A stretch of 64,000 nt of DNA from Sedimentisphaerales bacterium. GTDB lineage: Bacteria > Planctomycetota > Phycisphaerae > Sedimentisphaerales > Anaerobacaceae. A program made the translations under genes and the position numbers. The notes under the pieces were generated by a model. That model was not told where the DNA came from. It did not search any database and saw only the letters and a program-made list of their open reading frames with translations. The DNA lies in NCBI GenBank assembly GCA_963708075.1, contig OY970194.1:6080001-6144000 (forward strand), in the 5' to 3' direction. Of the stretch, positions 15,125 to 33,762 are shown in pieces. Numbering within the stretch: position 1 is the first letter of the stretch; every line of letters starts with the position of its first letter.

Positions 15125-15802
15125 TCATTCATCTGACTCCTGCCGCGTCAGGTCGATGAACAAGTGCGCCAGGCAAGTCAGAGCTTCAGCTCGGCGGGCG
15201 GCGCGTGTGTTCCCATTCCCCGAATTCACTGTCGGCGCAGCGGAACTGTCGCTTGGCGAAACCGGGTCAGCCGCCAGCAACAGGGCCTGCTCGATGGCAC
15301 TCTGCTGTGTCTCACTCACGAAGAACACCATGGGAACCGAGAATGGATTCGGGCTGTGTGGCGTCGTGCGTGGCAGCGGCTTGCGCCCCAGCAGCCGTTC
15401 GAGTTGGCCGCGAGTTTGCGGGAGCAGCTTGGCCAGATCAGGGATAGGGATGTGTCTGCGAAGCCGGCGGAGCAACCCGAGTTTCTTGTCGAGTGCATCC
15501 CGGCCGCCGAGCCGGTTGAGCGTGGCCAGCAGGACAGAAGTCTGCTCGTCATTGACGTCCCAGACCACCACATCGGCGGTTTTGCGGCCGAGCTCTTTGA
15601 GGGCGTCACGCCGGTGGTGGCCATTGATGATCTGAAAGTGGCCGTCTTTGCTGGGATGGGGCCGGACCACGAGGGGCTCGTACCGATCGGTTCGCCCGAT
15701 GTTGCGAACCAGCCTGGCGAAGTTCGCCCGACTCATCCAGTTGGGGTTATCGGGGTGCGGAACCAACTGTTCCAGCGGAATACGCCGAATCTTCGTACTC
15801 AT
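15125..15802 (-). CDS. ParB N-terminal (ParB/Srx-like) domain protein, phage type
   Basis: IPLEQLVPHPDNPN, PLVVRP, FQIINGHHR, LATLNRLGG. Confidence 0.85.
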   Translation of the reverse strand: MSTKIRRIPLEQLVPHPDNPNWMSRANFARLVRNIGRTDRYEPLVVRPHPSKDGHFQIINGHHRRDALKELGRKTADVVVWDVNDEQTSVLLATLNRLGGRDALDKKLGLLRRLRRHIPIPDLAKLLPQTRGQLERLLGRKPLPRTTPHSPNPFSVPMVFFVSETQQSAIEQALLLAADPVSPSDSSAAPTVNSGNGNTRAARRAEALTCLAHLFIDLTRQESDE

Positions 15803-15986
15803 GTGTTCACCTCCAAATGTGCAATGTACGAATTACGATTCACGAATTATGATTTCGGAGTCGAGGCCGGGGGACGGGTAACGAGACAAGGTGTGTGTGG
15901 AGCGTGGGTTGTGGGAGTCCTTCCCTTGTTCCTCGATCCTCCGACCCGCCCCGCAAAATGGTAAATCATAGATCGTAAATCATCTT

Positions 15987-16727
15987 TCACGGCAGTGTGA
16001 CCTCCAGAGTGGGATGGAACCATATATGATAGGCGGGTCGCTCCGTGAGTTTGCTCAGGATGTAGCGCGTGCGTTCGATGCCGGGCAACATAGTCCGGCG
16101 CTTGCCGTGACTTTTCAGAAACCGCTGCACGCGGATTTCGGTGAAATCCGCCGCCGGCTCTGGCAATGCATCCAGCTTCCTCTGTACACTTTCCGGGTCG
16201 ATCAGCTCGTTTTCCTCGATGCCGATGACGCTCAGGGCCTCGATCAATGCGACCTGCTCAAGACGCAGTCTGGGCGCGAATGCCTTCATTCCCGCGTGTT
16301 CCAGAAACGGATTCACCAGGGGCATGACGCCGACCGCTTCAACGACGGGGACATCCATCCGGGGCATGGTCTCGCGGACGAGCCGGGTCGCCAGGCCTAT
16401 GCCCCGAAACCGCGGCTCGATGACAACTCGCGCGATGCAGCGGATGTTCCGGTTGATCAGGGCCAACTGGGTCTGGCGATCGAGGTCCTTGAAGATGTTG
16501 CCGGTGGCGACGTTGCGAAGCTCCACGCGGGGAACAGGCATCGTGTAGACAATCACCCCAACCGGTTTCCTGTGGAATGAGCCAATCGGCGCTGCCGGCC
16601 TCATGGTGAAGACCGCCTTCACGCTGATTGGCGAACCGCCCCGATAGTGATAACAGGCGAGTTGCCTGTAGTCGTCCAGATCGCCGGGGACGATCTCCAG
16701 CTTGTTGCTCAGCGAACACGTGTGCAT
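15987..16727 (-). CDS. GNAT-fold acetyltransferase of the ABC-ATPase-associated type
   Basis: L..YHYR, IARVVIEPRFRGIGLA acetyl-CoA motif, VNPFLE.AGM. GAGGTG RBS before ATG 16727; the longer ORF-track start is repeat-derived. Confidence 0.8.
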   Translation of the reverse strand: MHTCSLSNKLEIVPGDLDDYRQLACYHYRGGSPISVKAVFTMRPAAPIGSFHRKPVGVIVYTMPVPRVELRNVATGNIFKDLDRQTQLALINRNIRCIARVVIEPRFRGIGLATRLVRETMPRMDVPVVEAVGVMPLVNPFLEHAGMKAFAPRLRLEQVALIEALSVIGIEENELIDPESVQRKLDALPEPAADFTEIRVQRFLKSHGKRRTMLPGIERTRYILSKLTERPAYHIWFHPTLEVTLP

Positions 16728-16809
16728 GGCGCACCTCATTGATGATTGATAATGGATGATGGATGATTGGTCTTCCGCCGCCGAATCATCAATAATCAAT
16801 CATCCATAA

Positions 16810-17451
16810 TCAATGGTTTCTATAGATGACCTCGGCCGGGCCCGAGAAGTCCTTGATCACCAGAACGTCGGGGGCAAGGTCGATCAGGATGTCCTCGTGG
16901 CTCGACGCCAGGACGAACGTGGTGCCGGTCCGCTTGGCGAACTTGTGGACGTTGAACGCGACAGCGGCGGCGGTGACTCTGTCCAACTCGCCCGAGAACT
17001 CGTCGGCGAAGATGAATCGCCTGCGGCTGGCCATGGCCTGGGCCAGGCGGAACCGGTACTTCTGGCCGTCACTGAGGTTGCATGGCTTCTTGAGAAGAGA
17101 GAAGACTTCGCTCAGGCCCACCGCGCTGAGCAGCCGCAGGGAAGAGACGATTGTCCCCTCGAAGCAGTCGATCACGGCCCGGTCCCGGGGAAGGGCGATC
17201 TGCGCGAGATTGATGGATTCGCCGGCGGGAATCGCCTGTTCCAACTCGTGCAGGAGCACGCTCTTGCCCGCCCCTGACGGGCCCGTAATGAAGGCAATAT
17301 CCCCCGCACCAAGCTCCAGCCGGCACTGATGAGTCACGATCCTGTCCGCAAGCTTGTCGGCGGTCAGGCCGAACATACGGCACAGTTGCACCGCTCTATC
17401 CGTAAGCGGCCCCTCCCACGGAAAGCCTCTTGATAGATCATAGGTTGCCAT
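16810..17451 (-). CDS. Soluble ABC-type ATPase with no permease partner
   Basis: Walker A GPSGAGKS, signature LSDGQKYR, Walker B FIFADEF, H-loop SSHED. Confidence 0.88.
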   Translation of the reverse strand: MATYDLSRGFPWEGPLTDRAVQLCRMFGLTADKLADRIVTHQCRLELGAGDIAFITGPSGAGKSVLLHELEQAIPAGESINLAQIALPRDRAVIDCFEGTIVSSLRLLSAVGLSEVFSLLKKPCNLSDGQKYRFRLAQAMASRRRFIFADEFSGELDRVTAAAVAFNVHKFAKRTGTTFVLASSHEDILIDLAPDVLVIKDFSGPAEVIYRNH

Positions 17452-17880
17452 TATGTATTCCCTCGCTTGATTGATGCTGCGTATACGCGTGCTCTGCGGA
17501 GAGTCGCTTTCACTCGATAAAGAGTAATCCCGCGATTCTGGCTGATGTGCGCTGCGGAAAGACCGCGGACGAAGAAGTCTTTGATCAGAGCCAACTCGCG
17601 ACCGGTGAAATCATCCCGGTTGCCCAGACAAATCTCATAGGTGTCATCCGCGAGTCGTCGTGCGATTCTGTGAATCCTGCGCCCGACATTCGATGGGCTC
17701 AGCCCCATCAGTCGCCCGATCTGACGAAGACTATTGCCCCGCTCCAGATACATCTCTATCAGGACGCGGTCTCTGCCTGCGAGCAGATGGGCCCGCATCC
17801 GAAGAATCTCGATGACACCACGGTTCTCCACCGTCTCGGTTGACGCAACGGCTGTCTCATAACCGTCCGCAGGTTCTCAT
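17451..17880 (-). CDS. Double-HTH (sigma70 region 4-like) regulator, apparent +1 base just after the start
   Basis: SLRQIGRLMGLSPSNVGRRI and LSAAHISQNRGITLYRV. AGGAG-GGAG RBS and ATG 17880 join the ORF if one base is removed from GGTTCTC at 17872-17878; otherwise start is GTG 17831. Confidence 0.7.
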
Positions 17881-17939
17881 TCTCCCACTCCTGTCGGAAT
17901 CAATCCTATCTCGTGGTATGGTCACAATGCCATTGTCGT

Positions 17940-17967
17940 ATTTTATCTGTACGGGGCATCGCGTCAA
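17940..17967 (-). promoter_or_regulatory. Putative sigma70 promoter of the HTH-ABC-GNAT-ParB operon
   Basis: Minus strand TTGACG-16 bp-TAAAAT in an AT-rich patch ~60 bp upstream of ATG 17880. Confidence 0.55.
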
Positions 17968-18220
17968 TTGTTTTGTTGTGTGTTTAGTAAAAAATCTTAT
18001 ATGGTACTGTAGTTGCAGACATTCTCCTTTTGCTAACATGCCTCCCCGACGCCACTTACGGAGAACCCTGATATCGTAAGCGCGCCTCGCATTTTTTTCA
18101 GAATTCATTCCTTTTTTCATGGACGGCATCATAAGCGGGGAAGAGGCGAGGCCGCCGGTGCGCGGGACGCGGGTCACCATATTCTGTCCCACGGGCCCCG
18201 CCCAGGTCTGACACCCCGCA

Positions 18221-18326
18221 ATGGACTGCTGGATGGACAACCTGGACGGCATGGACGATATGGGCACATGCAAGCCCAGGGACCGTCCATATCGTCCACT
18301 CTGTCCACACAGTCCGCCTCATCCAT
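18221..18326. repeat. Inverted array of 9-mer units (TGGACnnnn / nnnnGTCCA)
   Basis: tggacaacc tggacggca tggacgata tgggcaca ... gtccatatc gtccactct gtccacaca gtccgc. Confidence 0.75.
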
Positions 18327-18674
18327 TCCCTCCCTCTCATCCCCCCCCGACTCTGCGGCTTTGCCACCCTGTCTCACTTTCGATCGATTTTCGCACGATT
18401 CGCGCCGGTTTAGAAGTAAAAACGGCCGATCCTTCATATTTTTTCTACTCCTTTGCCCACAAGGACTTGGGCGCCCCTCCGCTACTTCGGCCACCGGCTT
18501 TCTTCGACCAATTAGCGCACTTTCGTCCCATTGTGGAGGCAGACATAAATGCCTCGAGAATTACGATTTACGATTTAGGCCGGTGCCGAGACGGGCGTGC
18601 CGACCGGGATCCCTGGATCGCGAGTTCCTAAATCATAAATCGCAAATGGTAAATCGTAAGTGGAGCACAGCGAC

Positions 18675-20228
18675 ATGGGATTCAAGCTGGATATCTTCGG
18701 CGACGGGCAGCTCGATGCGGAGTACCTGGAGTGGCTGGTGGATGAGCAGTCGGCCGCGGTGGGGCGGCACTTCTCGCGGCTGTGGGACTACTACAGCAAC
18801 CCGATGGTGGAGGTGGCCGGGGGCAACGCGGCGGACCGCAAGATCAGCGAGTCGGGACACCCTTACGTCCAGGCCCAGGAGTACGGCTTGCCCTCGCGGA
18901 TCACCGGGCTGGTGCGTTCGCCGCAGACGGGGATGTTCGGATCCCAGGTGGTCCGCGATATTCAGCGGAAAGAGGTCGTCATCGAGAACGATATCGCCTG
19001 GCGCATCAATGCGCTGGCGGATTTCCTGTTCGGAAAACCGGTAAGTCTTGTCTCCAAAGCCGCCGATGGCCAAAAACGCAACGAAATCGAGGCGGTTATA
19101 AAGGCGGTCTTTGCGGCCAACGGCGGACTTGGCTTCTTTCAGGACATGGCAGTGCTCGGAAGCGTCTACGGGTTTGTCGATTGCTTCCTCCGCACAGGCG
19201 ACACGTGTTTCGCCCCTGCCTCACACGCTTCCTCCCTTCAGCAGCCTCCGTTCGACACCGTGCTGACCCTGGCACAGGCAATCGACCTGGAACTGATCGA
19301 GGCGCCGAGAGCACTGCCGGTCCTGGATGAAGACGACTACCGTGTCGTCCGTTACTACGTCCAGCATTTCCACCAGAAGAAGAACACCATTCACAGGAAG
19401 AATTCCTTCCTTTCGCGGATTCTTGGAGCGTCGGCATATCCGACGGACACCCGTCAGGTCGTCGCCGTGACGGAGATCACCTCGCCTGAGTACTGGCAGC
19501 GTTACGAGGACAAGGAACTCGTCGCGGAAGGGGAACTGCCGTGGGGCTTTTTGCCGGTGGTGCACGTCCAGAACATCGCGCAGCCGTACTACTATGAGGG
19601 CGTCAGCGATGTCGAGGCGCTGATCCCGCTGCAGGATGAACTCAACACGAGGCTCAGCGATCGTGCCAGCCGGGTTACCTTTCAATCATTCCGGATGTAC
19701 CTGGGCAAAGGCATTGAGGGCTTCGAAAATAAGCCGATCGCGCCGGGGCGAATGTGGTGCACGGATAATCCGGAGGCCTCCATTCAGGAGTTCGGCGGAG
19801 ATGCCTCGGCCCCGAGCGAGGAGCGGCATATCGCCGAAATTCGCGAGGCATTGGACAAGACCAGCGGCGTGACGCCGGCCGTCGCGGGCGTTCTCAAGGA
19901 CAAGCTCGGGAATCTCACCAGCGCGGTGGCGCTGCGCCTGACCTTCATGGGCATGCTCAGTAAGAACGAGCGCAAGCGGCATACCTACAGCGACGGCCTC
20001 AAGAAGATCTGCCGGATGGTCCTGGGTATCCTGGACACCGCGAACATCTATAAGACGACCCAGGCCGAGCGAGACATCGATGTGATCTTTCCAAGTCCGC
20101 TGCCGGAGAATCTGATGGAGAAGCTTCAGGAAGCGCAAATCAAGCGAGATCTCGGTGTCCCCGCTGAGCAGGTGCTCAGAGAATTGGGCTACGAAACCAC
20201 ACAAAGAAGTACGAAGCACGATCCGTGA
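18675..20228 (+). CDS. Phage portal protein, SPP1 gp6-like
   Basis: LWDYY, DFLFGKPV, PVVHVQN, SDVEALIPLQDELN, TSAVALR; ~517 aa, upstream of scaffold and capsid. Confidence 0.85.
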   Translation: MGFKLDIFGDGQLDAEYLEWLVDEQSAAVGRHFSRLWDYYSNPMVEVAGGNAADRKISESGHPYVQAQEYGLPSRITGLVRSPQTGMFGSQVVRDIQRKEVVIENDIAWRINALADFLFGKPVSLVSKAADGQKRNEIEAVIKAVFAANGGLGFFQDMAVLGSVYGFVDCFLRTGDTCFAPASHASSLQQPPFDTVLTLAQAIDLELIEAPRALPVLDEDDYRVVRYYVQHFHQKKNTIHRKNSFLSRILGASAYPTDTRQVVAVTEITSPEYWQRYEDKELVAEGELPWGFLPVVHVQNIAQPYYYEGVSDVEALIPLQDELNTRLSDRASRVTFQSFRMYLGKGIEGFENKPIAPGRMWCTDNPEASIQEFGGDASAPSEERHIAEIREALDKTSGVTPAVAGVLKDKLGNLTSAVALRLTFMGMLSKNERKRHTYSDGLKKICRMVLGILDTANIYKTTQAERDIDVIFPSPLPENLMEKLQEAQIKRDLGVPAEQVLRELGYETTQRSTKHDP

Positions 20229-20299
20229 TTTACGAACTCAGTGCTGGCGCGAGCTAAATTGTAAATCATAAATCGCAATTCATAAATTGGAGAGGTGCT

Positions 20300-20830
20300 A
20301 TGGGTTCAAGTCGGACAGAAGAGAATCTGCTGGAAACAACGGAGGAGCAGGAGCTGGATGGCAATGATGCCGCGAAATTGGTCTCGGTGACCGAGTCGAT
20401 TCGTTACCGAAAGAGGGCGCAGAGCGCCGAGAAGAAGTCGGAGAGCCTGGCGGAGCAACTGACTGAGGCAAACCAGAAGATCGGCCGCCTGGAACAGGAC
20501 CTGACCGACCTTCAGACCGAGCAGAAACTGATACGCAAGCTTGCAGCGGCCGGCGCCGCGGACCTGGAGGCGGCCGTACTTGTGGCGAAGACAAGGATGG
20601 AGGGCAAGCCGGAAGCCGACATTGATGCGTGCATCGAGCAGTTGAGGAGGGAGAAGGCGTACCTGTTCGGTGGATCAATGGAGACATCACCACTCCGCAA
20701 AACGGCGGGCGCAAAGGATCGAGCCAGGCAGCCGCAGATGGCCCTGGAACAGGCTGCCAAGAAGGCAGCAAGGACCGGCAGCCGCGCGGACCTTCAGCAC
20801 TATCTGAAGTTGCGCAGGAACCTGTTGTGA
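20300..20830 (+). CDS. Phage capsid scaffolding protein (putative)
   Basis: Acidic N-terminus, ESIRYRKRA coiled coil, IEQLRREKAYLF; between portal and capsid. Confidence 0.7.
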   Translation: MGSSRTEENLLETTEEQELDGNDAAKLVSVTESIRYRKRAQSAEKKSESLAEQLTEANQKIGRLEQDLTDLQTEQKLIRKLAAAGAADLEAAVLVAKTRMEGKPEADIDACIEQLRREKAYLFGGSMETSPLRKTAGAKDRARQPQMALEQAAKKAARTGSRADLQHYLKLRRNLL

Positions 20831-20899
20831 CGCCGGATCAGGACTTGAACAAATCGCATGTGTGACAAAGTAACTGAACCATTGCAAGGAGAAGAGAAT

Positions 20900-22054
20900 A
20901 TGCCATTTACGGGAAAAGCGACATACTCAGCGGGAACGACTCTGCCGGAATTGGCAGAGGATGTGTCGGATATGATCGCGATCATCTCGCCTGATGAGAC
21001 GCCTCTGTTGAACGCGCTGGGCGATCCTCTGCGCAAGGCGACCAGCACGCATCACGAGTGGTTGGAGGATGAGCTGCTCCCCAACAAAGATGCGATCAAC
21101 GATTCGACGTGGTCGAATCCTGCGTCAGACACGGACTTCGTTGTGGACCACGGCAGCCGGTTCCGTGTGGGCGATCAAATCCAGACCGAGGGCAGTGGAG
21201 AGCTGATGCTCGTGACGGCGGTCAGCACCAACACACTGACGGTCGTTCGCGGTTATGCGGGCACCACGCCGGAGAATTTGGCGGACAACCAGATCATCAA
21301 CATCCTCGGCAACGCGGCCCTGGAAGGCGCCGACAAGCCGAACGCACGGTTCACCAACCGGGTGCGGTGCGGCAACTACACGCAGATCTTCACGGCCACC
21401 GTCGAGGTTAGCGGCACCGACATGGCGGCCAGTCAACTGGGCCTCGCGGATGAACTGGATCTCCAGAAGCAGGAACGATTGCGTGAATTGATCCGTGACC
21501 TGGAGGGTACCATCATCAATGGCGGTCTGCCGGCAAGCGATCCACAGGGCAGCGGCACGGTGCGCAGGACGATGAAGGGCATCATCCGGCACCTTTCGAC
21601 GAACGCATTCAGCACCGGCGACAGCGGTCTTCCCGCCGGCAACGATCTGGATGAGGCCAAGGTCAACTATGTGCTGCGGAAGATCTGGGAGAATAGTAGC
21701 GGCAATGTGGACCTGATCGTCGTCGGAGGCTTTCAGAAGCGAAAGATCAACGCCTTCTGCTCGGACAGTCGAAGCTATGGGGCGACCGACACGACGTTCA
21801 CGGACATGGTGAGCATCTACGAGTCGGATTTTGGCGTCTGCCGGATTGTCACGACTCGGTGGCTGCCGCAGGATGTGGCACTGTTCCTGGATTCTTCGAG
21901 GATCAGCGTTCTGCCCATGGCGGGACGGAGTTTCTACTTCAAGCCGCTGGCCAGCGCCGGCGATTACGAGTGCGGCGAGCTCATCGGCGAGTACACGCTC
22001 GAACTCAAGAATGAGGCTGCTCACGGCTTGATCCGCAACCTGACCACAAGCTGA
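20900..22054 (+). CDS. Major capsid protein, SU10/DUF5309 type
   Basis: EDVSD.I..ISP.ETP, HEWLEDEL, NYTQIF..TVEVSGT, RTMKG, YESDFG, GEYTLELKNE.AHG; AAGGAG RBS. Confidence 0.88.
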   Translation: MPFTGKATYSAGTTLPELAEDVSDMIAIISPDETPLLNALGDPLRKATSTHHEWLEDELLPNKDAINDSTWSNPASDTDFVVDHGSRFRVGDQIQTEGSGELMLVTAVSTNTLTVVRGYAGTTPENLADNQIINILGNAALEGADKPNARFTNRVRCGNYTQIFTATVEVSGTDMAASQLGLADELDLQKQERLRELIRDLEGTIINGGLPASDPQGSGTVRRTMKGIIRHLSTNAFSTGDSGLPAGNDLDEAKVNYVLRKIWENSSGNVDLIVVGGFQKRKINAFCSDSRSYGATDTTFTDMVSIYESDFGVCRIVTTRWLPQDVALFLDSSRISVLPMAGRSFYFKPLASAGDYECGELIGEYTLELKNEAAHGLIRNLTTS

Positions 22055-22142
22055 TGTCGATTGCGGATTGATGATTTCGGATTGCGGATTGGATCGCAGG
22101 GAGTTTTCCAATCCGCAATCCTGAGCGTGGAGATTGAAGACA

Positions 22143-22799
22143 ATGGTCAAGTTCTCAAGCGATGTGGACATTCTGAAGTATGAGCCGATTCTGTTCAGCG
22201 AACTGCATTTGCCGTGGCAGGTACTGGCGAGCGGGACCGGCGCGACCCTGGCTGGCACAACTCTGACGGTTTCAGATGCGAACTTCGAGAGTGCCGGTGT
22301 TTCCCTGGATGGTGTCGCCTATTTGCTCTCGACAGATGGATTGCTTGACGGCGCATATGAGATCGTGTCCGTGGATTCGGCGACACAACTGACTGTCTCA
22401 GTCCTCAGGTCAGACACTGCGAATACTCCAGTTGCCCCACCAGCCGCTGACGACGTCACCTATCGCATCAGCACGTTCGAGCCGCAGGCGGGTGAAGCGG
22501 CCTTCCAACTGACCGAGTACTTTGGCATCCGGCCGGGTGACGCGACGAGCACGATCACTGTTGATGACATCGTGGACACCGAGGGACTGCGAAGAGCCTC
22601 CGCCTTCCTGGTCATCGCCAGCGTCTACGCCATGTGGACCAGCCGGACCGATTGTGAGACGTTTTGGCGAAAGAGCTTGCATTACAGGCAGTTCTTCGAA
22701 AACGCCCGACAGCGATGTCATCTGAGTGTGGACCTTGGGTCCGACGGTGTGGCGGATATCACTCGCGTGGGCGGTGCGATCAGACTGGTGCGGGACTGA
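22143..22799 (+). CDS. Putative virion head-completion/adaptor protein
   Basis: Directly after the capsid gene; beta-rich middle and helical C-terminus. Function from position only. Confidence 0.5.
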   Translation: MVKFSSDVDILKYEPILFSELHLPWQVLASGTGATLAGTTLTVSDANFESAGVSLDGVAYLLSTDGLLDGAYEIVSVDSATQLTVSVLRSDTANTPVAPPAADDVTYRISTFEPQAGEAAFQLTEYFGIRPGDATSTITVDDIVDTEGLRRASAFLVIASVYAMWTSRTDCETFWRKSLHYRQFFENARQRCHLSVDLGSDGVADITRVGGAIRLVRD

Positions 22800-22817
22800 G
22801 CGACAGGGGAGCGACCT

Positions 22818-23190
22818 ATGAATGTCACATTAGATGGCAGTGCGTTGTTCGATGATCAGGGGCTGCAGATGGAAGTCGGCAGCTACAGCAGGGCCTACGT
22901 CGAACGCGCTATCCGCGGTTCTCGACGGTATGCTGAGCATCGATCTGGGAGAACGAACACGAGAAATTCTTCAGCGAGGCACGCTCCGCGCTCCCAGTCG
23001 GGCGGCAATGCAGGCCAGGACCGATTCGATCTCAGCTTTCATCGATGGCGATACGCACACGCTGAGAACCGCTGACAGACAAGAGTATCACAATATCCGC
23101 ATGGACAGCTTCAAGCAAATCGATGAGAGTACCAGCGGGCCGGGAATCGCCATCGAGTACGAGATCGTGTACACACAACTGGGAGTGTAG
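22818..23190 (+). CDS. Putative virion structural protein, frameshifted as given
   Basis: ORFs 22818.. and ..23190 fuse (ERAIRG-LDGMLSIDLG) on removing one T in GGTTCTC 22917-22923. Confidence 0.65.
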
Positions 23191-23195: not shown

Positions 23196-23975
23196 ATGTC
23201 GTTTCTTCGTGATGGGATTGAGAATGTTCGGGTCTTCGCTCTGCCGGATGGTGTCCGGGCAGACGGCCGGAGTGTCGCTGTGTATGGGGCCGCATTGGTG
23301 GCCTGGCGTTCATCGCATGTGGGCATGTTCCACCATGTGTACCTGAACGGCCGCTTCGCGGGTGCCACACTCGACACGGAGCAACGGCGACTTGTGGTGC
23401 AGGTACCCGGCTCATTCCAATCGGCGATACGAGTGACGGTGATCGCGGTGTCGCCAGCGGATGCTCACGTGGATTGCGCCGCTGACATCGAGCAGGCCAC
23501 GGTGTGCAGCGGACGGGTCAGGCTGACGTTGCTGCGAAGTCAAACCCTGCCTCTCGGCGCAACAGCCAATATCTACCATGACAGCGGCACGGGACAGATC
23601 GACTATGCAGAGCCGGTGAATCTAGCGCCGATTCCGGTTTGGCCCTGCGTGCAAGACAAGGCGGGTTTCGGGATGGCGCAGTTCGCAACGGGTGATTTTG
23701 GCTACGATTCTGCGGCATCATTCGGCTTTGGGAGAGGCGCTCTGGGACATGGCCAGTTCGGCTTGGATGCCGACTCGTTCCAGTGGACAGGGCCAGCGCT
23801 GCCGCTTGGCAAATACCGGTTTGGCGTGAGGATCACCGATACGATCGGCAACGTGAGCCTCGCCAGTGAGACGGCGCAGGTCACCATCGCGCCTGCCGTT
23901 AAGCCTGCGGACGGTCTTAATGTCGCGGCATTTGACGAACAAACGAACGAACTCACACTGACGGTAACAGGCTAA
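23196..23975 (+). CDS. Putative virion structural protein, beta-rich/FN3-like
   Basis: Tightly coupled; GFG-rich segment and GKYRFGVRITDTIGNVS. Confidence 0.55.
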   Translation: MSFLRDGIENVRVFALPDGVRADGRSVAVYGAALVAWRSSHVGMFHHVYLNGRFAGATLDTEQRRLVVQVPGSFQSAIRVTVIAVSPADAHVDCAADIEQATVCSGRVRLTLLRSQTLPLGATANIYHDSGTGQIDYAEPVNLAPIPVWPCVQDKAGFGMAQFATGDFGYDSAASFGFGRGALGHGQFGLDADSFQWTGPALPLGKYRFGVRITDTIGNVSLASETAQVTIAPAVKPADGLNVAAFDEQTNELTLTVTG

Positions 23976-24796: not shown

Positions 24797-24885
24797 CGGA
24801 TTTATGAATTATGATTTCCGATTTAGGGGTGGCGAGAACCCGAATTACAGTTCGCAATTCATAAATCGTAAATGGAGAGACACCG

Positions 24886-25344: not shown

Positions 25345-25437
25345 TCTGCGACTTACGAATTGCGAATTACGATTTCGCTCTCACCACGCCCAAGTCGCAA
25401 ATCGAGAATCGCAAATTGTAAATCCAATGGAGGACCT

Positions 25438-25837
25438 ATGTCTGGCTTTTCAGATTACTGGGAAAACCGGATTCTGAACCATCTGTTCTGCAAAGAGGCG
25501 TACGCCCCGCCAGCGTTGCTCTACGTGGCCCTGTCCACTGCTGATCCGGGCGACGACGGGACGGGTGCGGCAGAGCCCGCGGGCGGTTCTTACGCCCGCG
25601 TCGAGAACCTGCAATGCAAGCTGGGCCGGGGCCTCCGGCGGCGCGGTCTGCAACGCCGACGCCATCGAGTTTCCCCAGGCTTCCGGCGACTGGGGCACGA
25701 TCACCCACTTCGCTCTCTATGACGCTGCCACAGGCGGCCACCTGCTCGCCTGCGGGCCCCTGACCTGGCCCAGGACCGTCACCGCCGCCCATGCTATCCG
25801 CTTCGCCCCCGCCCACCTGACCGTGACGCTGGGTTGA
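25438..25837 (+). CDS. Small phage tail-associated protein, frameshifted as given
   Basis: FSDYWEN.ILNHLF..YVALSTADP..GGSYARV continues into IEFPQASGDWGTITHFALYDAATGG on removing one A in GAGAACC 25603-25609; GGAGG RBS. Confidence 0.75.
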
Positions 25838-25944: not shown

Positions 25945-26358
25945 ATGGCCAGCTATCCGCAATACGACTACGATCCTTCGAGCACGAACCTGTATCGCAC
26001 GAACCTCTACTCCGGGGCCGACCCGGATGTCGGAAGTACACAGCAGTTCTGTGCCGACATCGACCTGACCCGGCTGCTCTTCGCCGTCTGCGAGCTGAAG
26101 TTCGACGCCAGCGGAGCCACCGACGACCTCAAGGTGAGTCTCTACCGCCGCATCGACGACTCCTGGGATGGCGACGAACTCGAGATCTTCGCCACCACCC
26201 TCGACAGTGACGGCTCCGAGGATCTCTGGTCCTTCGTCCTCGGGCCCGACTTTGGCCCGGGCCACTACCGATTCGGACTTAAAAGCACCGGCGCCACCGA
26301 TACTTTCGACGTCGACCTCGACACCCGCTTCGCACGATTCGAAATCGCCACGAGTTGA
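25945..26358 (+). CDS. Hypothetical acidic beta-rich protein
   Basis: GGAG RBS, strong GC3 codon bias, lies within the operon. Confidence 0.55.
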   Translation: MASYPQYDYDPSSTNLYRTNLYSGADPDVGSTQQFCADIDLTRLLFAVCELKFDASGATDDLKVSLYRRIDDSWDGDELEIFATTLDSDGSEDLWSFVLGPDFGPGHYRFGLKSTGATDTFDVDLDTRFARFEIATS

Positions 26359-26362
26359 GACT

Positions 26363-27907
26363 ATGGCTACTAAGATCAAACCGTTGTTGGGCATTCTCGC
26401 GCGAGGTGGCCATCCCCTCGTTCGGGGTCTGGCGGGTGCATGGTTGTTCAACGAGGGGCGGGGGAACACGGCCTGGGACCTCAGCGGCAGCGGGCATCCG
26501 GGGACGCTGACGGGCATGGACCCGGCGAGCGACTGGGTCGCCGGGCCCCACGGGTACGCTCTGGACTTCGACGGGACCGATGACCGGGTGATTGTCGGCC
26601 CGGACGCAGGGATCAACCTCGGCACCGCCAACGCTTGCGTCATCCGATGCCGTATGAATTTGTTGAGTGCCTCGCGTATGCTCTTTGGGCACAAGGCGTG
26701 GAATAATGGCGGGTACTTCTTCACGCTTGCATCCGGGCTCCTCTATTATTGCGCGAATGGGTCCTACAAGGGCGTCTCGCATGGGATCATCGCAGGCGAC
26801 GAAGTATGGCTGGGGGTGTCACGGCAGGGGACGTTCGTGGCATTCTACAAGAACGGCGTGCCCCTCGGAGCGGTCCAAACGCTCGCCGCCAACAATGGCC
26901 TCTCTGTGAGTTCGATCGGAGCGTACCGCGATAGCGCGGCGGAGCTGGCGAACATGCGGTGTGACTACGTATACTGCTGGAACCGGGCGCTGTCGGCGGG
27001 GGAGATGGCGTGGCTATACCAGGACCCGTTCTGCTTCTTCCGGCGACCGAGCACGATCCCTCTCCTGGATTTCTCCGAAGGCACGATCCACGACGTCTCA
27101 GGCGCGGCCAGCGCGGCTTCTTCGGCAAGCGGGACCGCCACGGTGGTCCCGGGCGCTTGGCAGCCCACCGGCACACCCTGGCCGGAAGCCACGCTGGGCA
27201 TCGAGGCCTCCTGGCGGAAAGAGGCGATGCTCCATGGGATGACGGATGTCGCGGTGAAGCTCGGGATCGTTCTCACGCAGGGCTGGTTCTGGACGCGACG
27301 GTCAGGATGCTCGTTGCTATACGAACTGCAGGACGGGAAGGTTCATAAGCCCACCTTCCTCCTGCGTCGCGTGGCGCCGGTAGACGCCAGGCACATCGCC
27401 TTGTCTGCGTACCTGCCCCATGGGCCCGGCTCGAGTTGCTGCTATCTCCTCCGGCGGTTCAACAGTTGCGGGCACCAGGACCGAACGGTGGGAGCGGCGG
27501 TCCTCGTTCGCATGGCCCCAAACGGCCAACTGGCCCCACCTGCACCGAATCCCGTTTTCGGCCTGCAGGCCCGACAGACTGCCGGCGCCGTAGAGACGCA
27601 ACACCTTGTCTCTGTAGAGTGGTTCTACTGGCCTCTCGATCAGGCGGTGGTTCCGCGCGTGTTCAACGTGTACTGGGACGGCGGAACCGGCTGTCTTGAC
27701 CTTGTGAACCCTGTCGCGGTGGTGCCTTACGCGGGACGCAGGTTCTACCGGTGCCAAAGTGGGCCGGTGGAAGATGGCACGTATGTCTTCGCTGTGCAGG
27801 CTGAGAGTGTCACTGCGGTAGAGAGCCCGCCACGGAAATTCCAAATTCGGATTTCGACATTCGAAACTGGAGAGGAGCCGAGGATCCTCGACGTGGAAGC
27901 CATCTGA
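26363..27907 (+). CDS. LamG/concanavalin-A-like domain protein with FN3-like C-terminus (putative receptor binding)
   Basis: GLAGAWLFNEG.G..AWDLSG, ALDFDGTDD, FYKNG, WNRALS..E. Confidence 0.75.
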   Translation: MATKIKPLLGILARGGHPLVRGLAGAWLFNEGRGNTAWDLSGSGHPGTLTGMDPASDWVAGPHGYALDFDGTDDRVIVGPDAGINLGTANACVIRCRMNLLSASRMLFGHKAWNNGGYFFTLASGLLYYCANGSYKGVSHGIIAGDEVWLGVSRQGTFVAFYKNGVPLGAVQTLAANNGLSVSSIGAYRDSAAELANMRCDYVYCWNRALSAGEMAWLYQDPFCFFRRPSTIPLLDFSEGTIHDVSGAASAASSASGTATVVPGAWQPTGTPWPEATLGIEASWRKEAMLHGMTDVAVKLGIVLTQGWFWTRRSGCSLLYELQDGKVHKPTFLLRRVAPVDARHIALSAYLPHGPGSSCCYLLRRFNSCGHQDRTVGAAVLVRMAPNGQLAPPAPNPVFGLQARQTAGAVETQHLVSVEWFYWPLDQAVVPRVFNVYWDGGTGCLDLVNPVAVVPYAGRRFYRCQSGPVEDGTYVFAVQAESVTAVESPPRKFQIRISTFETGEEPRILDVEAI

Positions 27908-27997
27908 TTTACGATTTATGATTTACGATTTTTGACTCACGCAAATCACGAATCGGAGATCGTAACTCGCAAATCGTACATCAAAAGGGGAACGGGA

Positions 27998-29842
27998 ATG
28001 GGCAACACAGTCGACTTGTTTCAGCCGGAGCGTGTGAGCCTGGCTTTGCCGGCCGGTACGGTGGTCGTCTTCATCGACGGCGCGCTATGCGATGGTCTCG
28101 AGCCGGTGGAGATCGTCCGCGGAGGCTGGCCGGAATTCGGGCGTGCGAAACTGTTGTACAACCCGGCTACACGCCACGCCTCAGCGACACCAGGTGTTGT
28201 GTCCTTGTCAGAGGAGATTGAGGGCCACCTCGGCATGGGCAAGCACGTGAGCCTGCGGCAGCTTTTCAATGCCGCACCGCTGCAAACGGCCATGGATGAC
28301 CTTGTGCTCTTCGAGGGACAGATCGAAAGCATCGAAACCGCCATTGGCCCCGAAGGAGAGACTGTCGAGCTGACGGCCAGGGACTTCAGCGCTGTCCTCG
28401 AACACGTGACTGTGTATGGGCAGCATGTTGATGCATGCACTGGTGGCACCATCTTCCTGTCCGGCCTGGAGACGGCCTTCAACCCCGGCGGAAAGGGCAA
28501 TGCTGGGATGGAGCCGGCTGTAGCCAACGGGCAAACCTGCACGGTCTTCAGCGCAGAGGCCGCGGGAGCCAGAGCATGGCGATTGGCGGAGGTTATTGAG
28601 TACCTTCTGAAGGCGCACCTTCCTGCGGGGCGGCTGCACTGGCCTGGTATTGAGCAACTGCTTGCCCTGACAGAGGCTCGCGCAGCGCACGACTTGGACG
28701 TCACGGGCCTGAGCCTTCTCGAAGCCCTGCATCACTGCTGCGACTGGGCAGGTCTTCAGTTCCGGTTCGTACCGCGCTCGATCCAGACCGGGCCCCGCCA
28801 GGCAGTCGTCTTCTATCGGAACGGCCGGGGCCGCGTGATCGAACTGAATTGCCAGCCGGTGGGACAACCGTTGAGTCTGTCGCGGACCAGCATCGGTGCA
28901 CTGCATAGTCGGCGTGACGTCTATCCTCTCACGCATCGGTATATCGGCCAGGGCGATTTCAAGGTGTACGAGGCGACGTTCGAGCTCGTGAAGGCCTGGG
29001 ATCCCGCTCTGGAGGGCGTGAACTACTACACCTTCTGCCCATCAGCGAATCCGGAATTCCACAAGGTCAGGGATGTGTATCGCAGGTGGTGCCTTAATGA
29101 AGCGGGCGACTACTCCCGCGAACCCTATAGCCGTGGCCTACCCTGCGATCTCACGGGCATCTTTGAAGGCGGCAGCTATGTCCGTCGTCGCCGGAGATTC
29201 TGGCCGACCCTGAGTACGGACAGCCAAGGCAGGCCGCTGGGCTACTCACTGGAGGTTTCCTACGATGATGGTCTGAACTGGTGGCAGTATTTCCACGCCT
29301 TCAACAACCTGCTGGACGAATGTGGAATCTGGCTTTCCAACGACCAACTTGACGTGGATATATGGGTAGCCGTTCTGAAAGGGGTGTTGAGATTCCGGGT
29401 CACCGCCGCTGTCGTGAGCGACGAGCGGTTGACCTGCACGGTGGCGAATGGTCCGGTCGGTTCGACGGCCCCTGTAATCGACCACGTGCTCACGTTGCCC
29501 CGCCGGTTCCAGTATCGCAAGGTCTCGCCACACAGCGTGCTCGCCGGCACGGAGGGATTCGGCAAGCCCAATGAGGTTGATGACACAGCCGCCCTGTATG
29601 AGTTCGTCCGCCGGCACGCGTCGGCATCAGAGGCGATCATTGAAATAACTGACCTGCAAACACCCGCCCTCGCCTTGCACTTCGAGCCGGGCGATCGTGT
29701 GACCTCCGGCCCCGACAGTCGGGATCTGTTGAGCTGTCGGCGCGACAACCGGAGCCTCGTTTGGATAGATCATGTCCGCATGGATTTCAAGAGCCAATGC
29801 ACGCACCTGAGGCTCATCCGACAACGACCGTGGAGCGAATAG
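27998..29842 (+). CDS. Putative tail hub/baseplate-like protein
   Basis: LFEGQI..IE, VELTARD, FEPGDRV motifs seen in tail hub proteins; 614 aa. Confidence 0.5.
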   Translation: MGNTVDLFQPERVSLALPAGTVVVFIDGALCDGLEPVEIVRGGWPEFGRAKLLYNPATRHASATPGVVSLSEEIEGHLGMGKHVSLRQLFNAAPLQTAMDDLVLFEGQIESIETAIGPEGETVELTARDFSAVLEHVTVYGQHVDACTGGTIFLSGLETAFNPGGKGNAGMEPAVANGQTCTVFSAEAAGARAWRLAEVIEYLLKAHLPAGRLHWPGIEQLLALTEARAAHDLDVTGLSLLEALHHCCDWAGLQFRFVPRSIQTGPRQAVVFYRNGRGRVIELNCQPVGQPLSLSRTSIGALHSRRDVYPLTHRYIGQGDFKVYEATFELVKAWDPALEGVNYYTFCPSANPEFHKVRDVYRRWCLNEAGDYSREPYSRGLPCDLTGIFEGGSYVRRRRRFWPTLSTDSQGRPLGYSLEVSYDDGLNWWQYFHAFNNLLDECGIWLSNDQLDVDIWVAVLKGVLRFRVTAAVVSDERLTCTVANGPVGSTAPVIDHVLTLPRRFQYRKVSPHSVLAGTEGFGKPNEVDDTAALYEFVRRHASASEAIIEITDLQTPALALHFEPGDRVTSGPDSRDLLSCRRDNRSLVWIDHVRMDFKSQCTHLRLIRQRPWSE

Positions 29843-30243: not shown

Positions 30244-30272
30244 CGCGCCGGCGGACTGAACAGGAGGCGATA

Positions 30273-30542
30273 GTGACTAAAGAAACAGCGACAGGCTGGC
30301 GATTTGACCGCCGGATCAATCTCTCGGTGCTGCTGCAACTCATGGTGCTCGTATCCCTGATCCTCGGAAGCTGGGTGAATCTGCAACGACAGCTCGACTT
30401 GCTCCAGCACGACGTCACCATACTGCTGCAAAGTCAGAAGGAGTTCCAGCAGAAGCTCGAATCACTATCTGAGCGAAGTCTGTCCTGTGAGTACCGCCTG
30501 CAAGCCCTGGAAAAGGAGACGGTAGACCACAGTCGCCTGTGA
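30273..30542 (+). CDS. Small single-TM coiled-coil protein (holin/XhlA-like candidate)
   Basis: AGGAGG RBS and GTG 30273; WRFDRRINLSVLLQLMVLVSLILGSW TM followed by a coiled coil. Confidence 0.55.
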   Translation: MTKETATGWRFDRRINLSVLLQLMVLVSLILGSWVNLQRQLDLLQHDVTILLQSQKEFQQKLESLSERSLSCEYRLQALEKETVDHSRL

Positions 30543-30617
30543 AGTACCGTCAGCACAGGATGGATCGCGGATCCGTGAAGAGCATCCACTGATCGGGCGC
30601 GGCATGCGGCCTGAGTG

Positions 30618-31707
30618 TCACCAGATGAGACAGTTGCATTTGCGAGGATCACCCCGGCTTTTCAGATGATCCCAGACGTAGGGCGTTTCACGGCAGAGAC
30701 TGATAGATATGTGCTTGTTATGAGCGAGGATTGCATCGGTGAGGAGTCGATAGAACCCTATGCGTTGCTCAGGAGGATAGCGATACTTGCCGTCCGACGC
30801 TCTTTCCGTGAGAACCCATGCTTTGCAGTCGTGCGCCGCGATCACCGTAAGCCTGTCGGGCGAGTCTGAAGTGTCCGGGCAACAGCCGCAGCATGCCAAT
30901 CGTGATGTTCTCCGGTTCAAGGGCGGCAAGCGTTTCTCGAATCAATTCGGTGTAGTCGCGTTGCCAGTCAGAATAGAGGATGCCCGGATCGATACGCAGT
31001 CGGATGCGGTAGCCGTGTGCCTGGCACCGTCGCGCGGCGTGGATACGCTGCTCCAGACTCGCGGTACCCACTTCAAACGAGTCGATCATCGCCCGCGTAT
31101 TGAGGCTCCACGAGACCATGGTTTGGCTATTGGGCGTGAGACTCAGAAGGCCATCGACATTGGCGCTCTTAGTCAGCAGCATCAGATATCCGTTGGAGAG
31201 CCGGGAGAACAGCGGAACCAGTCGGGACGCCAACAAGCTGACATGGTCCAGGGCCAGACTGTCCAGCATCTCTCCCATGTTGAAGCTGATCGCATTCTGT
31301 GCACAAGCGGTCAGATCGCGAATCTCGTCGCACATTTTGCCGTAGTTGATGTTCAATTTGATGAAAGGAAGGTGATCCCGGTAGACATAAGCGAGATAGC
31401 AATAGGTACAATAATAAGGGCAGCCGTTCGAGATGGGCACGAGCTTGACATACGATGCACACCGCACGCTGCTGCCGAGACAGCCGTCAAAGTGGCGCAG
31501 GAACGAGGAGGCCTCGCCAATCATCAGGACTCTCTTGCCGGCGACTATGGCGGGCCTGGAGGGATGCTGCGGCAGAACCACGTCCCGCTGGCGGTCCACG
31601 ATCTGGACGTGTGCTTCCGGGAACATCCCGATGATGCGGGCAGCTTCCTTATGTCGCTGCAGCTTGCGCAACAAGTAGATGGTACTCGGTCTGAATGCCT
31701 GGGCCAT
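30618..31707 (-). CDS. Spore photoproduct lyase-family radical SAM protein, frameshifted as given
   Basis: GCPYYCTYCYL, GEMLDSLALD, LLTKS, SWSLN; joins DGKYRY...LCRE on removing one base at GAGAACC 30810-30816. Confidence 0.85.
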
Positions 31708-31794
31708 ATCCACGGCAGTCTCCGTTTGTGAAATCCCTGAACGACCATTGTACGCGTGAATACGAAAAAACGCATGACAATCCAGGAGGCAATT

Positions 31795-32418
31795 ATGAAG
31801 ACACTCTTTGCAGGACGCACAGGCAGATTGGCCACCATGATCCTCATCAAGGTTCTGATGGTATCCTTCCCCACAGGCCTGCTCTGCGGCTGCGACAGCC
31901 TGCGGCTGGCGCCAAGCGAGCAGCAGAAACAGAACGCCTGGCTGCACAACCGCACGGCGACGGTTGCCGCGGAGACGGCGCGGGCGGAGCCGACCTCACA
32001 GGAATTGCAGGCACTGACGAAGCTGTCCGAGCTGCAGAGCCGGGCCTTCACGTCATACTGCGGGCTGCCAAAGGAGTACCCGCCCGCCGAGACCACCCAG
32101 GAGATCCTGTCGCAGTCGAGTTGGGAGCTGGCGGGGACGGCGGTGGCTCAGTCGAGTGATCGGCCGGATCCCTGGCAGGTCGCGGACTCCATGGTGGAAC
32201 TGGGCATCGGCATCTGCGCCCTGCTCGGCGGCGTCGCCGGCACCCGGGCCGTGCGATTCCTCCGTGAGACTCGCACGAAGTCCCAGGCCCTCAGGGAGAT
32301 CGTGCAGGGCAACGAGCTGTTCAAGAAGCACAACGAGGATCAGACCCAGGCCTTCAAAGCCGCCCACCAGCTTCAGTCCCCCGAAACGCGCCAGCTCGTC
32401 ACCGCGATGAAAGGATAG
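31795..32418 (+). CDS. Putative lipoprotein with a C-terminal-half TM helix
   Basis: AGGAGG RBS; LLCGC lipobox; MVELGIGICALLGGVAG hydrophobic segment. Confidence 0.6.
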   Translation: MKTLFAGRTGRLATMILIKVLMVSFPTGLLCGCDSLRLAPSEQQKQNAWLHNRTATVAAETARAEPTSQELQALTKLSELQSRAFTSYCGLPKEYPPAETTQEILSQSSWELAGTAVAQSSDRPDPWQVADSMVELGIGICALLGGVAGTRAVRFLRETRTKSQALREIVQGNELFKKHNEDQTQAFKAAHQLQSPETRQLVTAMKG

Positions 32419-32425
32419 CGACGCC

Positions 32426-33160
32426 ATGGCCGAAGGCTTCATCATGCTGCGTCGTACACCCGAGACATTCGAGTTGCTACGGGACCGAAACGCCTTCGTG
32501 CTCCTGACCGTGATCGCCTTGCGAGCTCAGCGGACAAACGGGTTCAACATTCGTGGTCTCCAGCCGGGCCAGGCCCTGCTTGGCGACCACGAATGTTATG
32601 GGCTGAGTCTGCAACAATACCGCAGCGCGAAGCGGCGCCTCCAACGGTGGCGCTTCGCCGACTTCCAATCAACAAACAGGGGAACGCTGGCAACGCTCCT
32701 GGATACAAGGATTTATGATATCCACAAAGACCGGGAGCAACAAGCCTGCAACAGGCCGGCGACAGACCGTGCGCAGGCGACCGACCAACGGCCAACCACT
32801 ACCAATAAAGATGAGAAGAAAAGAACTGAGAAGAAGCATCCCGACAACTCTGACGAGTTGCGGCTCGCCCAGTTTCTGCTGGATTCGATCCGCCAGAGGA
32901 AAGCGGATATGCGATCCCCGGATCTACAGGCCTGGGCTGTGGAGATCGGCCGCATGATTCGGCTGGACCACCGCGAGCCACAGCGCATCGAGGCGGTCAT
33001 CCGCTGGTGCCGGAAGGACCCCTTCTGGTGGAAGAACATTCTCAGTGCCCGCAAACTACGGGAGCACTTCGACAGGCTTGAGATCGAGATGGGCGGACAA
33101 TCGGCCCGCGAGAGCACGCGGGACCGGATCACCCGCCTGGAACAGGAGGCACCGCTGTGA
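32426..33160 (+). CDS. Phage replication initiator (lambda O / replisome-organiser-like)
   Basis: N-terminal wHTH ending STNRGTLATL, low-complexity linker, C-terminal IRWCRKDPFWWKNILSARKLREHFDRL. Confidence 0.8.
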   Translation: MAEGFIMLRRTPETFELLRDRNAFVLLTVIALRAQRTNGFNIRGLQPGQALLGDHECYGLSLQQYRSAKRRLQRWRFADFQSTNRGTLATLLDTRIYDIHKDREQQACNRPATDRAQATDQRPTTTNKDEKKRTEKKHPDNSDELRLAQFLLDSIRQRKADMRSPDLQAWAVEIGRMIRLDHREPQRIEAVIRWCRKDPFWWKNILSARKLREHFDRLEIEMGGQSARESTRDRITRLEQEAPL

Positions 33161-33762
33161 ACCGTGACGAGCGTCTGCGATTCATCGACCATGAACTGAA
33201 GGGCCTGTGGCCCGATTGGGAGCCCACAGACGCGGAGCTTCGGCTATGGATGGGCATACTGACCGATCGCCCCTATGACCCGGCACGCCGGGTGCTGCAG
33301 GAGTGCTTCTGCGGCCCCGCGGGCCACTATCGCCGCCCCAAACCCGCGGCCTTCATGGAAGCGCTCAAAGCTCTGTCTGCATGCGGCCCCATGGCCCGGA
33401 CGGCCCCGCAGGATACGGAGCCCGGTGTCTTCATTGAGTGCATGGAGCCGCCGGAGGGCCAGCCGCACCTGCTTGGCATGCGGCAACCTGTGATTGTCCT
33501 GCCCGTCTCGCGGCGGGATGATGCGGACTACGTTCAGGCCTGTGCCGAATCCCTGCGCAAGCAAGCCCAGGAGCACGACGGCGGTCAATGGATCACCATC
33601 CGGCCCAGGCCGTCGACCGACGATACTCTCCGCGGACCACCCGCCCGACAGGCGGCTTGCGACCAGATCCTCGCCGGCCCCGATACCCCGGGCCGCCGCT
33701 ATCTCCTCCGACGCCAGGAGGCGGGGAGTTTCAAACTCGTCCCAGACACAAAAGCACCATGA
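33157..33762 (+). CDS. Hypothetical, possibly helicase loader/inhibitor-like
   Basis: GTGA overlap with the initiator; LKGLWPDW...LWMGILTD.PYD...PKPA N-terminus. Confidence 0.45.
   Translation: MNRDERLRFIDHELKGLWPDWEPTDAELRLWMGILTDRPYDPARRVLQECFCGPAGHYRRPKPAAFMEALKALSACGPMARTAPQDTEPGVFIECMEPPEGQPHLLGMRQPVIVLPVSRRDDADYVQACAESLRKQAQEHDGGQWITIRPRPSTDDTLRGPPARQAACDQILAGPDTPGRRYLLRRQEAGSFKLVPDTKAP

Follow-up and report, generated by a model that had tools for sequence, protein, structure and literature searches.

The class Phycisphaerae of the phylum Planctomycetota probably harbours a so far undescribed particle system resembling gene transfer agents (GTA), the genes of which lie in and near bases 6080001-6144000 of the 7.5-Mb single-contig genome (G000) of a Sedimentisphaerales bacterium. 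This 64-kb stretch is called the window throughout, with positions counted from 6080001. Two divergent gene sets, which sit there between an alpha-amylase-family gene (13011-14981) and a GLUG-motif gene (34396-35862) of the host, belong to two co-inherited modules, that is, a packaging operon and a head/tail operon, whose genes are single-copy, intact and scattered among host genes. The reading we favour, and consider likely, is that they form a phage-derived particle system (a GTA-like viriform) that belongs to the Phycisphaerae host and is passed on vertically. Its parts deserve different degrees of confidence: that this is a domesticated particle system is very likely, that DNA-filled particles would be made is fairly probable, and that gene transfer could be the selected function is somewhat less probable than not, although it is the best single guess. 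Two features expected of a GTA are seen. The genes are inherited vertically under purifying selection, and genes of phage type reside in the chromosome with no integration or lysogeny genes detected and no conserved replication function.

The open reading frames (ORF) of the window were listed with their codon-position GC and annotated using Pfam (73 ORFs), PHROGs (62 ORFs) and NCBIfam. The flanks of the capsid and large terminase genes were compared in 36 genomes from 15 families and in 80 loci of near relatives ("near loci"), many of which are truncated by contig ends and in which genes were counted by tblastn and locally built hidden Markov models (HMM). Distribution was assessed in samples of 41 relatives (G000 counted, 26 of them high-quality), 301 Phycisphaerae genomes and 401 genomes of the phylum. 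Labels starting with G, L and f denote genomes, loci and families, respectively.

Head/tail and packaging modules

An initial annotation of the window had proposed portal, scaffold and SU10-type capsid genes, and these were confirmed by Pfam and PHROGs. The portal gene g08 (18660..20228, + strand) matches SPP1_portal (PF05133, 3.8e-16) and phrog_64 (2.2e-22), while the scaffold gene g09 (20300..20830, +), which is kept between the portal and capsid genes in 79 of the 80 near loci, matches Phage_scaffold (PF06810) at 9e-5, below the Pfam cut-off. The major capsid protein encoded by g10 (20858..22054, +) is of SU10 type and belongs to PF17236 (SU10_MCP, 1.2e-87), with a score of 294.6 bits versus a gathering cut-off of 24.1. 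The capsid gene is always followed by g11 (22134..22799, +), present in 36/36 sampled genomes, the fold of which is that of a head-to-tail adaptor with an inserted beta-barrel. Sequence profiles gave only weak leads in PDB for g11, g13, g14 and g19, and predicted folds were therefore needed for g11 and g19 (AlphaFold2 models, followed by Foldseek against PDB or VIA-align). The g11 model (predicted local distance difference test, pLDDT, of 94.4) has no Foldseek match in PDB at E <= 1e-3. Its residues 5-221 align by VIA-align to phage adaptors and neck proteins, those of Mu (5ydn, Z 8.5), GP4 (8jov_2, Z 7.5) and SU10 (7z47_A, Z 6.5) as well as P74-26, Moo19 and others; these Z values are middling and the matches consistent.

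The tail genes follow on the same strand, and the approximately nine neck, tail and fibre-like genes announced by the initial annotation are real ORFs that are conserved in relatives, two of which (g11 and g19) have fold support. They start with g12 (22818..23190, +), which encodes a small neck/tail protein and has a frame change near 22920 at GGTTCTC, g13 (23196..23975, +), a protein combining an Ig-like domain and glycine-rich repeats (weak matches to Ig/PKD-type PDB entries at 2e-3), and g14 (24008..24796, +), a fibre-like protein with a profile match to the 'Long tail fiber' 8kec_A (9.7e-5) and 60-75% identity within the order. The small virion-module protein g15 (24886..25344, +) precedes g16 (about 25360/25438..25831, +), which resembles Gp80, the fibre I of podophage GP4 (PF23140, 1.3e-16), and has a frame change at about 25605 at GAGAACC. 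The fibre-like or receptor-binding-like protein g18 (26168..27907, +) varies between 225 and 1217 aa in relatives and has no family match in Pfam, PHROGs or NCBIfam; the last of these databases names none of the structural genes. The tail hub g19 (27932..29842, +) is of gp27/VgrG/Mu gp44 type: its AlphaFold2 model (pLDDT 81) has 54 Foldseek matches in PDB at E <= 1e-3 (the top one being 7aef_q, 4.4e-11), and among the matches listed all are baseplate hubs or central spikes (gp27/VgrG/Mu gp44/Pvc8 type).

Two genes for membrane proteins close the module. The first, g20 (30273..30542, +), encodes an 89-aa protein with a coiled coil and a hydrophobic segment predicted to form one membrane helix. 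Its start was placed using an upstream GGAGG and 57 homologues, most of which have 86-100 aa. The second, g22 (31756..32418, +), is a 220-aa ORF encoding a conserved membrane-associated protein with hydrophobic segments, the true start of which is probably later because its relatives have 190-200 aa. It comes directly after g11/g20 in four genomes (G031, G037, G038 and G132), and in the Atlas it falls into hypothetical planctomycete and viral clusters only, with no function. The initial annotation had called both genes lysis-like; they have predicted membrane helices, and as a guess g20 and g22 are candidate release or lysis factors.

The head operon has the order portal - scaffold - capsid - g11 everywhere, and g12, g13, g14, (g15, g16), g18, g19, g20 and g22 then follow in families f1, f5, f9, f10, f16, f21 and parts of f7 and f15. 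Counted over the 80 near loci, the capsid gene is present in 80, the scaffold in 79, g11 in 77, g12 in 70, the portal in 69, g13 in 67, g14 in 66 and g19 in 50, followed by g15 (43), g18 (42), g16 (39), g22 (31) and g20 (21). Packaging and accessory genes are found next to these capsid genes in fewer cases, namely the ATPase and helix-turn-helix (HTH) genes in 19 each, the spore-photoproduct-lyase-like (SPL) gene in 16, g03 in 8, ParB in 6, the replication initiator in 4, the large (TerL) and small (TerS) terminase genes in 2 each and g24 in 1.

The absence of a large terminase, as initially noted, did not hold. A PF17289 (terminase nuclease domain) profile search of the whole genome matched one place, an intact 528-aa TerL ORF that lies outside the window (genome 6070072-6071658, - strand), 27 kb upstream of the portal gene, flanked by genes for topoisomerase I (TopA) and an FAD oxidoreductase. 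This match scores 26.5-29.6 bits versus a cut-off of 22.6, PHROG TerL families reach 6.9e-15, and the Pfam TerL ATPase families PF03237 and PF03354 match nowhere in the genome, so that TerL was found by PF17289 only. The protein has the ATPase Walker motifs and the C-terminal RNaseH-like nuclease that define a large terminase, and 37/37 genomes share the same Walker A (G120, K122, T123) and Walker B (D209, E210) residues, the same four cysteines and the same acidic residues of the nuclease. A TerS-like gene, g01 (9383..9808, -), matches phrog_2538 (terminase small subunit, 2.7e-7), and its orthologues in relatives have the ParB-like gene on one side and TerL on the other. In G000, host genes intervene, ~17.7 kb of them (for a permease, a sulfatase, a penicillin amidase and other proteins) between TerL and TerS and another 5.3 kb (oxidoreductase, amylase-family gene) between TerS and the ParB-like gene.

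Within the window, the packaging operon is led by g05 (17451..17831, -), an HTH protein resembling sigma-70 region 4 (PF04545, 7.6e-9; TIGR02937, 5.7e-11), the position of which is kept in 25/36 genomes and which may be a regulator. It is followed by g04 (16810..17451, -), a soluble ABC-type ATPase (PF00005, 2.2e-10; phrog_293, 4.9e-28) whose position upstream of TerL is kept across families, g03 (15987..16799, -), a 270-aa protein with a GNAT-like acetyltransferase fold (PF00583 matches 18/19 orthologues, at best 7.8e-6, and GNAT chains in PDB match at 3e-3), and g02 (15125..15802, -), a ParB-N-domain protein (PF02195, 1e-6; phrog_723, 8.9e-14) that adjoins TerS/TerL in 11/36 sampled genomes. 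The order HTH - ABC ATPase - g03 - (ParB) - (TerS) - TerL is fixed in essentially all of the 15 families. In family f9 (L251 2543-3805) the ATPase and the GNAT-like protein are fused, and the Atlas clusters of such fusions are mostly viral (Uroviricota), with no known function.

In the mechanism we propose, a host signal would lead the HTH protein to activate both divergent operons. Procapsids would form from the scaffold, capsid and portal proteins, and TerS/TerL would cut DNA and pump it into them. Most of this DNA would come from the host, because host genes interrupt the set of particle genes, members of which are as much as ~1 Mb from each other in relatives. The adaptor would then seal the portal and bear a short tail made of hub and fibres, the membrane proteins (g20 and g22) might aid release, and the particles would carry DNA into sister cells.

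Distribution, descent and selection

The capsid gene is present in 34/41 relatives (22/26 of the high-quality genomes), mostly in single copy and at 86% down to 57% identity. Within the class it is found in 165/301 genomes, clade by clade, with identity decreasing from 86% to 51% with taxonomic distance: some families are nearly or fully positive (f7 21/23, f10 21/22, f14 36/43, f19 13/13, f21 5/5), others are negative (f11 0/12, f20 0/18, f23 0/12, f17 0/7). TerL, found in 203/301 class genomes (a tally that includes a weak match in the unpublished G314), has the same family pattern, including f11 (0/12) and f20 (0/18). The closest public records are titled Sedimentisphaerales, Phycisphaerales, Phycisphaerae or, in many cases, 'uncultured Pirellulales'. 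In the phylum sample, 53/401 genomes have the capsid gene, which occurs outside the class in a few families only, namely f79 (17 genomes, 42-52% identity), f62, f55 and f116, and is absent from the large families f29 (0/20) and f38 (0/23). Five out-of-class genomes have a TerL that is distant (31-37% identity over the nuclease domain). The idea that f79 might be an anammox family found no support, a hydrazine-synthase family being detected in 0/5 genomes, three of them from f79. A capsid gene 82% identical to that of the window is also found in L040, a public record titled Candidatus Aegiribacteria, which is probably a contig of Phycisphaerae that was binned wrongly.

Conservation extends to gene order and to the neighbouring host genes. 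A PfkB-family kinase gene is directly upstream of the portal gene in 42/80 near loci, and NAD kinase and tetratricopeptide repeat (TPR) genes are neighbours common to relatives' loci and to the genome of the window. In the near relatives L095 and L082 the packaging and head operons are adjacent and divergent; the genome of the window has kept this order and strand, with host genes inserted. The gene set there spans ~42 kb, of which ~23 kb are host genes. Over the 13 genomes with both genes on one long contig, the distance between capsid and TerL genes ranges from 9.5 kb (G158) to ~981 kb (G031).

For phylogenetic analysis, 36 genomes were picked for single full-length capsid and TerL matches, to which G000 was added (37 in total), and the capsid (348-400 aa), portal (461-747 aa) and TerL (474-644 aa) ORFs are all open in this set. 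The trees are quick IQ-TREE searches (LG+G4) with Shimodaira-Hasegawa approximate likelihood ratio test (SH-aLRT) support only and TopA as the one host marker. The deep clades of the capsid, TerL and portal trees are the same as in the TopA tree of the same genomes, and the 15 family labels change 15 times on the capsid tree and 14 times on the TerL and portal trees, for a minimum of 14 and ~29 when labels are shuffled (0/200 shuffles were as low). Patristic distances, from which G025 was left out because of its long TopA branch, correlate with those of TopA (capsid r 0.66, TerL 0.80, portal 0.57) and between capsid and TerL (0.74), values that were reached in 0/2000 permutations. The mean capsid distance is 0.61 of that of TopA. 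Median ratios of non-synonymous to synonymous substitutions (dN/dS; pairwise NG86 estimates among near relatives, with 1395 usable of 3240 pairs for the capsid) are 0.061 for the capsid, 0.104 for the portal, 0.11 for g14, 0.136 for g11, 0.164 for g13, 0.165 for g19, 0.176 for the scaffold and 0.202 for g22, all approximate since dS is near saturation. Vertical inheritance, which the initial annotation had inferred, is thus upheld by trees congruent with TopA and family labels, and the checks it had called for turned out as it expected: the capsid gene is widely conserved, synteny is kept, dN/dS is below 1 and an intact TerL exists elsewhere in the genome, co-inherited though mostly unlinked.

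The window copy itself has three places where relatives' proteins align across two frames, at ~22920 in g12 (66 queries), ~25605 in g16 (39) and ~30813 in g21 (20), all of them at GAGAACC/GGTTCTC, in line with the motif-specific single-base lesions reported initially. This motif is prone to frameshifts genome-wide. When one base was deleted at 400 sampled sites per 7-mer, and a site was scored if its open frame gained at least 300 nt, GAGAACC was frame-lengthening at 44/400 sites versus 5-13/400 for five control 7-mers. For this reason, the three frame changes are probably systematic assembly errors rather than decay. In addition, an independent metagenome contig lacks one base exactly at 25606. 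The error is perhaps linked to methylation, and it may likewise be the reason why this single-contig genome is 92.8% complete.

Known systems and competing readings

GTA of the RcGTA type, known from Alphaproteobacteria (Rhodobacter capsulatus), consist of phage-derived head, packaging and tail genes fixed in the chromosome at several loci. The Phycisphaerae system is alike in these respects, in having no detected integration or lysogeny genes, in its vertical inheritance over a large clade under purifying selection, and in having a gp27-like hub, typical of long-tailed phages, and a candidate sigma-like/HTH regulator. It differs by its phylum and phage ancestor, by an SU10-type capsid, by the absence of any detected prohead protease, tail tube or tape measure, by the ABC-ATPase/GNAT/ParB set that accompanies the terminase and by the lineages that have no tail genes; moreover, its particle production and gene transfer are putative. 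It does not fall within the Rhodogtaviriformidae, which have an HK97-type capsid and a prohead protease, since its capsid matches only PF17236 and no protease family is found in the cluster. BaGTA (Bartonella), VSH-1 (Brachyspira), Dd1 (Desulfovibrio) and VTA (Methanococcus) are independent domestications of tailed phages, of which ours would be a further instance. No homology to them was seen, and none was looked for; unlike them, the system is hosted by Planctomycetota, in a whole class and a few other families of the phylum. Among phages, the podophages SU10 (Kuravirus) and GP4 (Ralstonia) share with it the PF17236 capsid, the adaptor fold of their portal-tail complexes and the Gp80 fibre-I domain; unlike them, it has a gp27-like hub and does not make up a complete phage genome. 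When compared with 50,697 phage records, the capsid comes closest to that of a Sporosarcina phage, at 31.6% identity. In the text reached by full-text searching, no description of such a system in Planctomycetota or Phycisphaerae was found, and a passage of PMC12213060 merely cites the RcGTA paper.

Several points weigh against the GTA-like reading. Particles, packaged DNA, expression and transfer have yet to be seen. In families f8, f14, f19 and f26, five complete genomes have head and packaging genes with no g19 or g14 profile match anywhere, and a DNA-delivery tail is therefore not universal; the small genes that come after the adaptor in such head-only lineages (c5, c10, c11, c8, c18 and c17) have no HMM-HMM likeness to window genes (best probability 24%). 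Two genomes, G047 (complete; L275 6924-11281) and G288 (L276 3821-11428), have an intact HTH-ATPase-GNAT-ParB-TerS-TerL operon and no SU10-type capsid or portal detectable anywhere in the genome, which hints at a capsid-independent role or at ongoing loss. The capsid gene is split in G321 and in G013 and G021 (both of low completeness, with few contigs), and a few nodes of the capsid tree conflict with host families (e.g. an f21 row joined to an f15 row, SH-aLRT 96). The way in which the tree genomes were picked, the quick trees with their one host marker and the rough dN/dS values, all described above, add to these points.

The tail-less and packaging-only genomes also speak for a domesticated particle or packaging system with another purpose, be it anti-phage defence, a fixed capsid-forming satellite that borrows phage tails, DNA release in biofilms or a killing particle. 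So do the conservation of the ABC-ATPase/GNAT pair and the ParB-like protein with the terminase, and the weak likeness of the ATPase to defence ATPases (mad3 3.7e-13, PtuA 8.5e-3). However, PADLOC matched no defence system beyond this generic ATPase similarity, and the invariant ATPase and nuclease motifs of TerL argue that DNA is really packaged. As for satellites, capsid-forming phage-inducible chromosomal islands (cf-PICI) carry genes for a terminase, portal, scaffold, capsid and connector of their own, which makes the head-only lineages similar to them in gene content, but they are mobile, compact, patchy and integrase-carrying, whereas the modules here are clade-wide, split, congruent with the host and have no integrase that could be found. 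A satellite or cf-PICI identity was rejected on these grounds, and another purpose altogether strikes us as unlikely.

That a temperate phage lineage or an active prophage widely infects Phycisphaerae, and that conservation is only apparent, is very improbable. All the genes are of phage type, a DnaD/O-like initiator sits beside the cluster and close capsid genes are found on two IMG/VR contigs (at 84% and 67% identity), but the contig with 84% identity represents this very chromosomal cluster, which viral catalogues thus already contain, and only 4/80 near loci have the initiator. Moreover, packaging and head genes are far apart, with host genes between them, there is mostly one copy per genome, and the trees of unlinked genes follow the host. 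A functional temperate prophage was likewise rejected as an identity for the set, in which the packaging genes are interrupted by host genes, the modules are unlinked in relatives and the scans detected neither integrase nor tRNA nor repressor. Still less probable, to the point of being barely credible, is a functionless remnant of a cryptic prophage in decay. The three frame changes of the window copy, the split capsid genes and the tail genes missing in several families would fit it, but the ORFs are full-length in all 36 other genomes from 15 families, dN/dS is 0.06-0.20 and the capsid evolves more slowly than TopA, while the frame changes lie at a frameshift-prone motif and an independent contig does not have one of them.

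The host-owned, GTA-like particle system therefore remains the reading we prefer. A fuller version of it, on balance somewhat doubtful, is that of a class-old GTA family in Phycisphaerae and a few other planctomycete families, which would have arisen independently from an SU10/GP4-like phage, have its own ABC-ATPase/GNAT/ParB packaging operon and include tail-less, head-only variants that deliver or release DNA by a route new for GTA. Should particles indeed be made, this system would be the first GTA-like one in Planctomycetota, new and domesticated independently, and would span a whole class of environmentally abundant and genetically intractable bacteria. It would then offer (i) a route, open to testing, by which genes move horizontally in sediments and wetlands, (ii) a possible DNA-delivery tool for planctomycetes and (iii) a natural series for the taming of viruses, from full head-tail sets to head-only and packaging-only ones.

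Accessory genes, junction repeats and unusual loci

Besides the two modules, the cluster has accessory genes. An SPL-like radical SAM gene, g21 (30621..31947, -; PF20903, 2.9e-26), which has its frame change at a GAGAACC motif, lies past g20 on the opposite strand. The replication initiator pair of the initial annotation consists of g23 (32426..33160, +), a DnaD/O-like initiator (phrog_2514, 9.3e-35), and g24, a 201-aa ORF ending at 33762 (+). The initiator gene is there as claimed, but the pair is accessory and lies outside the conserved system, because g23 and g24 are found in only 4/80 and 1/80 near loci by tblastn (4 and 2 by phmmer). The functions reported as absent were not detected in the window scans either: there is no tRNA within the 64 kb, neither Pfam (73 ORFs) nor PHROGs (62 ORFs) gave an integrase, recombinase, repressor or lysogeny switch, Pfam matched no family of sheath, tape measure or endolysin in its 73 ORFs, and there is no prohead protease or tail tube in the cluster using Pfam, PHROGs and NCBIfam.

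A 275-aa ORF with no family match (8516-9343, -) adjoins the TerS-like gene, and G227 has a homologue of it (3.5e-19) at L234 8981-9658, the second gene downstream of the adaptor. The ORF may thus encode an additional part of the system. Other layouts occur in relatives. About 11.5 kb interrupts the capsid gene in G321 (L115 4075-16993), and in G179 (L105 9140-19421) the portal-scaffold and capsid-adaptor intervals carry insertions of several kb. In G045 (L277 1731-13765) and G082 (L278 1554-12760), from families f13 and f22, scaffold-like or adaptor-like genes are downstream of TerL on the same contig; no SU10 capsid is detectable in these two genomes, a divergent capsid is presumed between the scaffold-like and adaptor-like genes, and the layout may be an older or alternative contiguous arrangement.

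Gene junctions are filled with AT-rich heptad palindromes (units like CGTAAAT), at 15823-15982, 18557-18668, 20255-20289, 22059-22081, 24798-24880, 25356-25423 and 27835-27981. The control region between the two divergent operons (17832..18659, no strand) likewise has palindromic AT-rich heptad repeats, and its two ORFs (17857-18273 and 18221-18631) have no homologues in related loci. The genome has 143 such sites (179 raw matches versus 28 in a reversed-sequence control), the densest group of which is the gene cluster studied here (8 sites in 9.4 kb). Other groups are found in a flagellar operon, at a MacB-type transporter locus and at similar host loci, as implied by the initial description of these repeats as host-type, and in metagenome contigs copies of the repeat join many other sequences. 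They may serve as terminators, mRNA stabilisers or regulator sites. Just past the cluster, at 33848-34258, inverted repeats (33848-33878 / 34228-34258) accompany a 36-nt direct repeat, and the very high depth of this segment in four metagenome contig sets marks it as a widespread short repeated element.

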